Source: Escherichia coli (lineage in GTDB: Bacteria; Pseudomonadota; Gammaproteobacteria; Enterobacterales; Enterobacteriaceae). From it: a DNA stretch of 64,000 nucleotides. The DNA lies in NCBI RefSeq assembly GCF_024502345.1, contig NZ_JALDNN010000001.1. The stretch is one strand, 5' to 3'. Below are positions 42,115 through 42,478 of the stretch, in pieces. The position numbers and the translations under genes are program-made. Positions within the stretch are counted from its first letter, which is position 1; each line of letters opens with the position of its first letter. Under the pieces are notes generated by a model. The model was not told the origin of the DNA. It saw nothing but the letters and a program-made list of their open reading frames with translations, and made no database searches.

Positions 42115-42478
42115 GCCTGATGCGACGCTGGCGCGTCTTATCAGGCCTACGCAGGGGTAGAACCGTAGGTTGGATAAGGCGTTCACGCCGCATCCGACAG
42201 CCGTTGCCTGATGCGACGCTGGCGCGTCTTATCAGGCCTACGCAGGGGTAGAACCGTAGGTCGGATAAGGCATTCACGCCGCATCCGACAGCCGTTGCCT
42301 GATGCGACGCTGGTGCGTCTTATCAGGCCTACGCAGGGGTAGAACCGTAGGTCGGATAAGGCGTTCACGCCGCATCCGACAGCCGTTGCCTGATGCGACG
42401 CTGGTGCGTCTTATCAGGCCTACGCAGAGGTAGAACCGTAGGTCGGATAAGGCGTTTACGCCGCATCCGACACGCATT
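42115..42478. repeat. BIME cluster: four tandem ~91-bp REP-containing units
   Basis: Unit GCCTGATGCGACGCTGGCGCGTCTTATCAGGCCTACGCAGGGGTAGAACCGTAGGTCGGATAAGGCGTTCACGCCGCATCCGACAGCCGTT repeated four times with a few point differences. Confidence 0.8.

Follow-up and report, generated by a model that had tools for sequence, protein, structure and literature searches.

The 64,000-nt stretch of E. coli DNA analysed here (the window) carries four head-to-tail 91-bp units at 42113-42476, in the interval between dedD and cvpA. The array is, with near certainty, a BIME-2 element, in which Y-type REP palindromes alternate with inverted Z2-type REP palindromes. Judged from its position, it is 3'-UTR sequence of the folC-dedD transcript, located upstream of the terminator of that transcript and not adjacent to a promoter. 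E. coli strains carry from zero to five units at this site, and the commonest state is a single unit.

Tandem Repeats Finder placed the array at 42113-42472, with a period of 91, 4.0 copies, 97% matches, 0% indels and a score of 678. A second repeat search returned the identical 91-nt register, with units starting at 42113, 42204, 42295 and 42386. The first-pass annotation had described four tandem REP-containing BIME units of about 91 bp at 42115-42478. Those coordinates refer to the same array with a 2-nt offset, counted from the first base of the REP, and both the 91-bp period and the composition, a Y REP followed by an inverted Z2 REP, agree with that description. The 36-nt Y REP and the 35-nt Z2 REP each gave four matches in the array, compared with 0.00 expected from shuffled sequences.

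Each unit features a Y REP on the plus strand, a 14-nt head-to-head linker (GCAGGGGTAGAACC) and a Z2 REP in inverted orientation, and contains the short tail linker AGCCGT. In unit 1, the Y REP spans 42115-42150 on the plus strand (GCCTGATGCGACGCTGGCGCGTCTTATCAGGCCTAC, 36 nt), and the Z2 REP spans 42165-42199 on the minus strand in its consensus orientation; the plus strand reads GTAGGTTGGATAAGGCGTTCACGCCGCATCCGACA, and the palindrome on the minus strand is TGTCGGATGCGGCGTGAACGCCTTATCCGACCTAC. In units 2-4, Y REPs map to 42206-42241, 42297-42332 and 42388-42423 on the plus strand, and Z2 REPs map to 42256-42290, 42347-42381 and 42438-42472 on the minus strand. The four Y copies differ among themselves by 0-1 mismatch, as do the four Z2 copies. 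The REPs of the array are predicted to fold into a bulged two-part stem and carry the GTAG/CTAC foot at their ends, as the Y REP terminates in ...GGCCTAC and the Z2 REP begins with GTAGG... on the plus strand.

BIME-2 elements are defined by the association of y and z2 REPs through a short linker, and by the presence of multiple tandem copies that are conserved within a locus and vary in number between strains (PMC3333891). Their head-to-head linker is of the short S type, as opposed to the long, IHF-binding L linker of BIME-1 elements (PMC3333891). The array is assigned to BIME-2 because the Y REP, the 14-nt linker and the inverted Z2 REP occur in the same order in every unit, the four units are in tandem and 97% identical, and the number of copies ranges from 0 to 5 among E. 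coli genomes. Elsewhere in the window, positions 23790-23892 hold a BIME-1-like element whose linker is AT-rich and 34 nt long.

The array is extragenic, as the dedD stop codon (42105) precedes it and the cvpA start codon (42637) follows it, and no CDS is annotated over it in RefSeq genomes. Open reading frames of 43 aa on the plus strand (one per unit) and of 56-95 aa on the minus strand were rejected as genes, since they are artefacts of frames running through the repeats and match no RefSeq CDS. A consensus scan called no promoter-like site within the array.

The units are closely similar to one another. When compared with the Tandem Repeats Finder consensus unit, units 1, 2 and 3 each carry one difference and unit 4 carries three (42405, 42428 and 42457), in line with the 1-3 point differences per unit reported initially. 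All six internal differences are transitions. The change in unit 1 (42113-42203, +) is a private C>T at 42171, which converts a pair in the Z2 stem to G-U. Unit 2 (42204-42294, +) carries a G>A at 42272, a marker also present in the second unit of the O157:H7 and W619 arrays, and unit 3 (42295-42385, +) carries a C>T loop marker at 42314, also present in the third unit of O157:H7 Z1723 and W619. The terminal unit 4 (42386-42476, +) features a TTTA loop and an ACGCA right junction, like the single unit of K-12; its right end includes three further changes in the last 4 nt (ACGCA, not AGCCG), where the array meets the flank. Immediately downstream, at 42477-42488 (+), there is a direct repeat of the first 12 nt of the unit (TTGCACGATGCC versus TTGCCTGATGCG; 9/12 positions match here, and 10/12 in K-12). 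This repeat bounds the array and is present in a single copy in the zero-unit allele.

The tandem organization also accounts for the similarity of the array to a known RNA family. Three regions of the plus strand match the Rfam naRNA4 model (RF02564), each with full model coverage and a 6-nt linker deletion, and all exceed the gathering score of 59.5. The first match (42168-42238, 77.8 bits) comprises the Z2 REP of unit 1, the tail-to-tail linker and the Y REP of unit 2; the second and the third are at 42259-42329 (73.5 bits) and 42350-42420 (79.5 bits). Scores on the minus strand are 49-55 bits, below threshold. The matches are a consequence of the tandem BIME-2 build, which generates Z2-linker-Y junctions. 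The other BIMEs in the 64-kb window are not in tandem and have no naRNA4 match.

Open reading frames around the array correspond to accD, folC, dedD, cvpA, purF and ubiX. A 1.4-kb region is 100% identical to the E. coli O125ac:H10 strain C 236-04A, in which the flanking CDSs are annotated as dedD and cvpA. The dedD CDS, the product of which functions in cell division, spans 41443-42105 on the plus strand (663 bp) with a GTG start and a TAA stop at 42103-42105, as annotated in the 100%-identical strain and in others. The cvpA CDS (42637-43125, +) starts with an ATG at 42637, according to both the list of open reading frames and the annotation of the identical strain. A 9-nt spacer (42106-42114, +; TACGGTTTT) separates the dedD stop codon from the base of the first REP stem.

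The end of the array is followed, after about 30 nt, by the predicted intrinsic terminator of folC-dedD (42507-42544, +). It consists of a hairpin at 42507-42536, with a 12-bp stem and a 6-nt loop, and of the downstream sequence TTTTTATT; its predicted energy is -18 kcal/mol (z -5.0). Further downstream, at 42565-42580 (+), is the PurR operator of cvpA-purF-ubiX, ACGCAAACGTTTTCTT, a 16/16 match; 15 of its first 16 positions fit the published PurR consensus ACGCAAACGTTTTCCTT. The probable -10 hexamer of the cvpA-purF promoter, TAGAAT, is at 42588-42593 (+), as suggested by sequence and conservation; the consensus scan reported no promoter at that position. A comparison of 13 species representatives showed conservation of the hairpin, of the PurR box and of the hexamer region from Escherichia to Klebsiella and Enterobacter; the sequence separating the dedD stop codon from the hairpin varies. 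The terminator hairpin is kept in Escherichia, Salmonella, Citrobacter, Klebsiella and Pseudescherichia, and is found with base changes in Enterobacter; the PurR operator is invariant in all the genera examined.

Annotation in the identical strain and the operator match thus agree with the initial placement of the array between dedD and cvpA and upstream of the PurR box. In contrast, the view that it lies directly upstream of the cvpA-purF promoter has to be abandoned, as a terminator hairpin with a 12-bp stem and a T-run, conserved from Escherichia to Klebsiella, is interposed. The position of the array between a stop codon and a conserved intrinsic terminator suggests that it is co-transcribed with dedD.

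Folding predictions support a highly structured RNA. The 446-nt 3' UTR, read as plus-strand RNA, has a predicted fold of -225.6 kcal/mol (z = -10.3) with eight REP hairpins and the terminator; the predicted energies of the individual Y and Z2 hairpins are -21.4 and -16.7 kcal/mol, respectively. Pairing is retained in 98.2% of the stem cells in a set of 32 distinct units, drawn from 20 strains and species, compared with 25-42% when the partners are slid. Columns belonging to stems are approximately 3-fold less variable than unpaired columns (Mann-Whitney p = 0.02). Compensatory changes are few: a covariation test of the two hairpins counted 3 cells in 2 pairs, a value equalled by 56/500 shuffles.

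Copy number was assessed by using as a query the two flanks joined without the array, and the span of the matches gave the length of the insert. Two evenly spaced samples were drawn from a ranked set of 5,425 complete E. coli genomes, each consisting of 60 rows, with 0.7-kb and 2-kb queries. Together they provided 118 informative rows, with at least one genome present in both samples. One unit is found in 85/118 rows; these include K-12, whose intergenic region measures 258 bp, as well as variants in which dedD has a 12-bp indel or the unit has decayed. Four units, as in the window, are found in 14 rows, corresponding to about 12% of the sampled genomes; three units in 12, including ST131; two units in three, including O145:H28; no unit in three; and five units in a single row (THO-008). 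The expectation that copy number varies among strains is therefore borne out by the comparison across E. coli genomes. Alleles with 3-5 units are common in the B2 and E lineages (ST131, O1/O2:K1/K2 ExPEC, O157:H7), and one unit is present in K-12 and in many of the sampled strains.

The maximum copy number was taken from the two flank-only samples. A synthetic query carrying eight units was uninformative, as overlapping pieces of loci with 1-2 units spanned the whole query. Both flanks are joined within 1.5 kb in all but two genomes, and much longer arrays are accordingly at most very rare.

The near-identity of the units had been taken as a sign of recent expansion. In a strain- or lineage-specific expansion of this kind, units would be alike because the duplications are young, and the 97% similarity of the units fits such a scenario. 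Two further observations are in its favour. The B2-type arrays (ST131, O2:K2:H1 and SCU-123) are more diverged internally, with 4.7-7.8 differences per 84 nt compared with 2.7 in the window, and adjacent units of THO-008 have private markers in common, indicative of local duplications. The unit-by-unit comparison of 20 alleles, in which positional identity was scored over an 84-nt core, points in the opposite direction. The four-unit arrays of the window, W619 and O157:H7 Z1723 have markers in common at the same positions, namely an A at column 69 in unit 2, a T at column 20 in units 3 and 4, and the TTTA loop and ACGCA junction of unit 4. Units 2 and 3 of the window match, without a single difference over 84 nt, the units occupying the same positions in O157:H7 Z1723, despite a 1.8% difference in the flanks, whereas units within the window array differ from each other by 2-4 nt. 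Similarly, unit 3 of W619 is identical to its window counterpart and unit 2 differs by 1 nt, although the flanks are 2.9% different. Positional orthologues are thus closer than paralogues. The identity of units at the same position in strains with 1.8-2.9% divergent flanks, the frequency of four-unit alleles in the sample and the presence of two-unit arrays outside E. coli all argue against a fresh expansion, which we regard as improbable. By these comparisons, the four-unit allele is older than the window, O157:H7 and W619 lineages, or has been exchanged among them.

The tandem state itself is still older. Two units are found in E. albertii, in E. whittamii and in strain E69, and the internal junction ACAGCCGTTGCC, checked in the first two, is the same in both. 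The presence of two units with the same junction in these species shows that tandem repeats predate E. coli, and that at least one or two units have occupied the slot since before the split of E. coli and E. albertii. Outside Escherichia, the slot between dedD and the terminator has a varied content. A Y+Z pair is found in Citrobacter amalonaticus, and single or degenerate REPs are found in other Citrobacter and in Salmonella arizonae. There is no REP in the slot in Klebsiella and Pseudescherichia, and Enterobacter cloacae carries an unrelated palindrome.

Copy number changes when units recombine unequally in register or slip against one another. This is seen in O157:H7 strain 3384, an array of three units in which the third joins parts of units 3 and 4 of Z1723 into a chimera. 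Mosaic arrays are also found in close relatives of the window strain. The zero-unit allele is exactly 91 bp shorter and retains one copy of the TTGCCyGATGC repeat, indicating that the element can be lost through the direct repeat at its edges. Because no Escherichia outgroup is devoid of units, the simplest explanation for this allele is a deletion. Alleles with decayed units, which have lost 23 bp internally, also persist.

By analogy with the BIME-2 family, and with the REP325 array in particular, we favour, with a probability of roughly 0.6, a reading in which this BIME-2 acts within the folC-dedD 3' UTR as a passive structure with length-dependent effects, blocking exonucleases and providing some attenuation, and in which it also constitutes a cluster of gyrase sites. 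The stack of hairpins in the RNA would block 3'-to-5' exonucleases, and the dedD message would consequently be protected, or decay intermediates ending in hairpins would accumulate. The array may also add, upstream of the intrinsic terminator, an attenuation that is partial, length-dependent and in part reliant on Rho, as other members of the family and REP325 suggest. The first hairpin, 9 nt past the dedD stop codon, may hinder terminating ribosomes. In the DNA, the Y REPs would be bound and cleaved by gyrase, and four units would provide four sites. The original seeding of BIME-2 elements is attributed to the REP-associated tyrosine transposase.

That the array influences dedD mRNA stability or termination, as proposed at the outset, is plausible by analogy; whether a local action in the 3' UTR is its chief consequence at the dedD locus is, in our judgement, evenly balanced. 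Any such effect must be dispensable and may be small, because healthy strains have 0-5 copies. In K-12, which has one unit, no 3' end is present among those listed by Term-seq mapping for the dedD-cvpA intergenic region, which argues against a strong effect of the one-unit allele. Moreover, as the intrinsic terminator is strong and cvpA has its own promoter, additional attenuation may matter little for cvpA. According to Harris et al., REPs do not consistently prolong the half-lives of mRNAs, and their effects are strongly dependent on context.

Deletion of REP325 increases expression of the downstream gene about 8-10-fold and reduces the upstream yjdM message; REP325 transcripts form a hairpin ladder, and partial Rho dependence is seen with the full array only, not with 2-4 hairpins. 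Since array length influences both Rho-dependent attenuation and the blocking of exonucleases in REP325, copy number could in principle represent a heritable, lineage-specific dial on the level of DedD, on read-through into cvpA-purF or on gyrase loading, with unequal recombination providing reversible tuning. We give little credence to this extension.

The array may alternatively be selfish or neutral repeat DNA residing in a permissive slot between stop codon and terminator, with a copy number that drifts by unequal recombination. This is possible, although we consider it doubtful. It would fit the occurrence of all states from 0 to 5 copies in natural isolates, the persistence of decayed units, the unrelated palindromes and degenerate REPs that fill the slot in Enterobacter and in Salmonella and Citrobacter, respectively, and the K-12 Term-seq result. 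In contrast, stems vary less across strains and species than do loops and linkers, the element has persisted in the slot across Escherichia species, and local effects have been measured for REP arrays built in the same way. The conservation of stems could, however, stem from homogenisation of REP copies or from the needs of the transposase rather than from a function for the host. A main role on the DNA, in which Y REPs recruit gyrase and the array is a strong gyrase site independent of transcription or a topological buffer between folC-dedD and cvpA-purF-ubiX, with a capacity that rises with the number of units, is unlikely as the principal explanation and is in any case compatible with effects on the RNA. 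Gyrase cleavage sites are over-represented in BIME-2 elements, mainly in the Y REPs, which the enzyme prefers, and the BIME-2 signal increases when transcription is blocked by rifampicin (PMC6379681). The K-12 unit at this locus has two sites in the presence of rifampicin and ciprofloxacin and one with microcin B17, and most BIME-2 elements among the rows listed in the supplement have none (PMC6379681). Yet neither ciprofloxacin alone nor oxolinic acid revealed sites at the K-12 locus (PMC6379681), and strains with zero copies exist.

The remaining interpretations have far lower probability. A direct effect of the array on the PurR-regulated cvpA-purF promoter, through upstream DNA structure or read-through, is suggested by proximity only, the array ending 89 nt before the PurR box. 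We consider it very improbable, as the conserved intrinsic terminator intervenes, genera without the array have the same promoter, operator and terminator, and the array contains no promoter-like site. Least credible of all is the hypothesis that the array encodes naRNA4-like RNAs that bridge REP cruciforms with HU and condense the chromosome, the nucleoid model originally proposed for REP325 (PMC4550694). The three Rfam matches above the gathering score are on the transcribed strand, but the Rfam model merely describes the Z2-linker-Y junction, which is present in any tandem BIME-2. Furthermore, the 2026 re-examination of REP325 that gave the deletion results above found neither a ternary HU-RNA-cruciform complex nor REP-REP Hi-C contacts, and the nucleoid was unchanged upon deletion or overexpression of REP325.

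Descriptions of BIME-2 arrays, of their amplification in tandem and of differences in copy number between strains go back to the 1990s. The array is thus an ordinary member of a long-known family. Variation in BIME-2 copy number between strains is a published general property, and 0-5 copies are normal for the class. The element at this locus is itself already catalogued in K-12: Sutormin et al. list an 83-bp element, "BIMEs2 cvpA-dedD", in a K-12 background, with its gyrase cleavage sites (PMC6379681 supplement). The K-12 RefSeq record has no repeat_region feature at the dedD-cvpA locus, and a literature search for dedD, cvpA and purF together with REP found nothing specific. What the analysis adds are corrections: the array would lie in a 3' UTR, before the terminator; the four-unit state is old and fairly common; and changes in copy number can be traced to in-register recombination. 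The natural series from zero to five copies could serve as a natural experiment relating the length of a REP array to the behaviour of mRNA 3' ends and to gyrase recruitment, a question of array length that has been reopened by the 2026 REP325 study.

The closest known relative of the array is the unit found at the same locus in K-12. It has the same flanks, left junction, right junction (ACGCA|TTGCC), Y REP, linker and Z2 REP as the window; K-12 has one unit in a 258-bp intergenic region, and the window has four units in 531 bp. As the K-12 unit combines a Y half similar to that of unit 1 with a Z2 half and junction similar to those of unit 4, it looks like the product of a collapse of a longer array. 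The BIME-2 arrays at araD-araA, sucC-sucB and tldD-yhdP (Gilson/Bachellier) share with the window the y + z2 composition, the short head-to-head linker and tandem amplification. High conservation within the locus, variation in copy number between strains and gyrase cleavage, the latter published for the K-12 unit at this site, are features of the BIME-2 family as a whole. Only the locus-specific linkers (GCAGGGGTAGAACC and AGCCGT) distinguish the window from other BIME-2 arrays, and the head-to-head linker has an extra GTAG.

Like the units of REPIN/RAYT (TnpA-REP) systems, the units of the array are inverted REP doublets with GTAG/CTAC at each foot and a mismatch kept in the stem; both the GTAG/CTAC foot and the stem mismatch are needed for binding and cleavage by TnpA-REP (PMC3333891). 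The difference lies in the mode of copy change: the one change resolved at this locus (three versus four units in O157:H7) is in register, and homologous recombination or slippage would suffice for it. The array also resembles REP mRNA stabilisers of the malE-malF type, in which REP hairpins are located in the 3' or intercistronic region of an operon. REPs less than 16 nt from a stop codon lower translation of the upstream gene, according to the work of Liang (2015) as cited in PMC12306157, and the first REP of the window, 9 nt from the dedD stop codon, falls within the range of these stop-codon-proximal REPs (nrdAB type).

REP325, located between yjdM and yjdN in K-12, is the most informative comparison. 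It is an alternating Y/Z2 tandem in the 3' UTR between a co-directional gene pair, with the same orientation relative to transcription as the window array, and its palindromes are labelled Y and Z2 in the literature. The Rfam naRNA4 model, which was built on REP325, is matched from end to end by junctions of the window array. The Y REPs of the two arrays differ by 1 nt, in the loop. The consensus Z2 REP of the window differs from that of REP325 by 3 nt, two of which form a compensating pair, and unit 1 has one more difference (C>T). The two arrays differ in size, as REP325 has a 100-bp unit, linkers of 17 + 11 nt and 12 hairpins, and the window array has a 91-bp unit, linkers of 14 + 5 nt and 8 hairpins. 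Unlike REP325, the window array is followed by a conserved intrinsic terminator and by an independent, regulated promoter.

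Three features upstream of cvpA hardly vary among Escherichia, Salmonella, Citrobacter, Klebsiella and Enterobacter (loci L012-L126): the terminator hairpin of dedD (window 42507-42544), the PurR box and the -10 region. The 30-360 nt that separate the dedD stop from the hairpin form a slot, the palindromic elements of which differ and are genus-specific. For instance, the slot of Enterobacter cloacae carries a palindrome of approximately 60 nt, CCCTCACCCTAACCCTAACCC...GGGTTAGGGTTAGGGTGAGGG.

Mosaic alleles of the dedD-cvpA region were identified in strains Res13-Sevr-PER07-33 (L137) and SM107 (L138). 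The former features a left flank identical to that of the window and the window's private unit 1, marked by C>T at 42171, while its second unit and right junction come from another haplotype. In SM107, units 2-4 and the right flank are window-like and the dedD flank is different (20/506 differences). In both strains, the recombination breakpoints fall within the array of BIME-2 units or adjoin it. Strains FDAARGOS_497 (L006) and AF10 (L133) carry a decayed unit at the same locus, in which a 23-bp internal deletion joins the Y 3' arm to the Z2 5' arm (…CTTATCTGGTACAGATAAGG…). The decayed unit either stands by itself or precedes an intact one.

The head-to-head linker GCAGGGGTAGAACC, located at 42151-42164 and at the equivalent positions of every array unit, contains an extra GTAG, four bases ahead of the GTAG that belongs to the Z2 REP. 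The tetranucleotide GTAG is needed for binding and cleavage by TnpA-REP, the REP-associated tyrosine transposase (PMC3333891).

Within dedD, a 24-nt repeat present in two copies (41748-41795) codes for the Pro/Lys-rich linker of DedD. The gene is 12 bp shorter in some strains (651 vs 663 bp), apparently through an indel in this region. Beyond the naRNA4 matches of the array, the only gathering-level Rfam match across the window is a tRNA gene on the minus strand at 6483-6554 (Rfam tRNA, 63.4 bits).

REP elements are also found elsewhere in the window. An unusual REP-related cluster at 32700-32790 contains short direct repeats (GTAGGTCGGA / GTAGTCGGA / GTAGGTCGGA) as well as a duplication of the segment CGCGCCAGCGTCGCATCCGAC. 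It possibly represents a REP that has been rearranged or is decaying. A single BIME-2-like unit, in which 9 nt link a Y REP to an inverted Z2 REP, maps to 29215-29295 and is not amplified. At 23790-23892, a Y REP and an inverted Z REP are separated by a 34-nt AT-rich linker (AATTGAATCACAATCTATTGAATTTGCACACTTT). The element looks like a single BIME-1, of the RIP/RIB type that binds IHF, and contrasts with the BIME-2 array located between dedD and cvpA.
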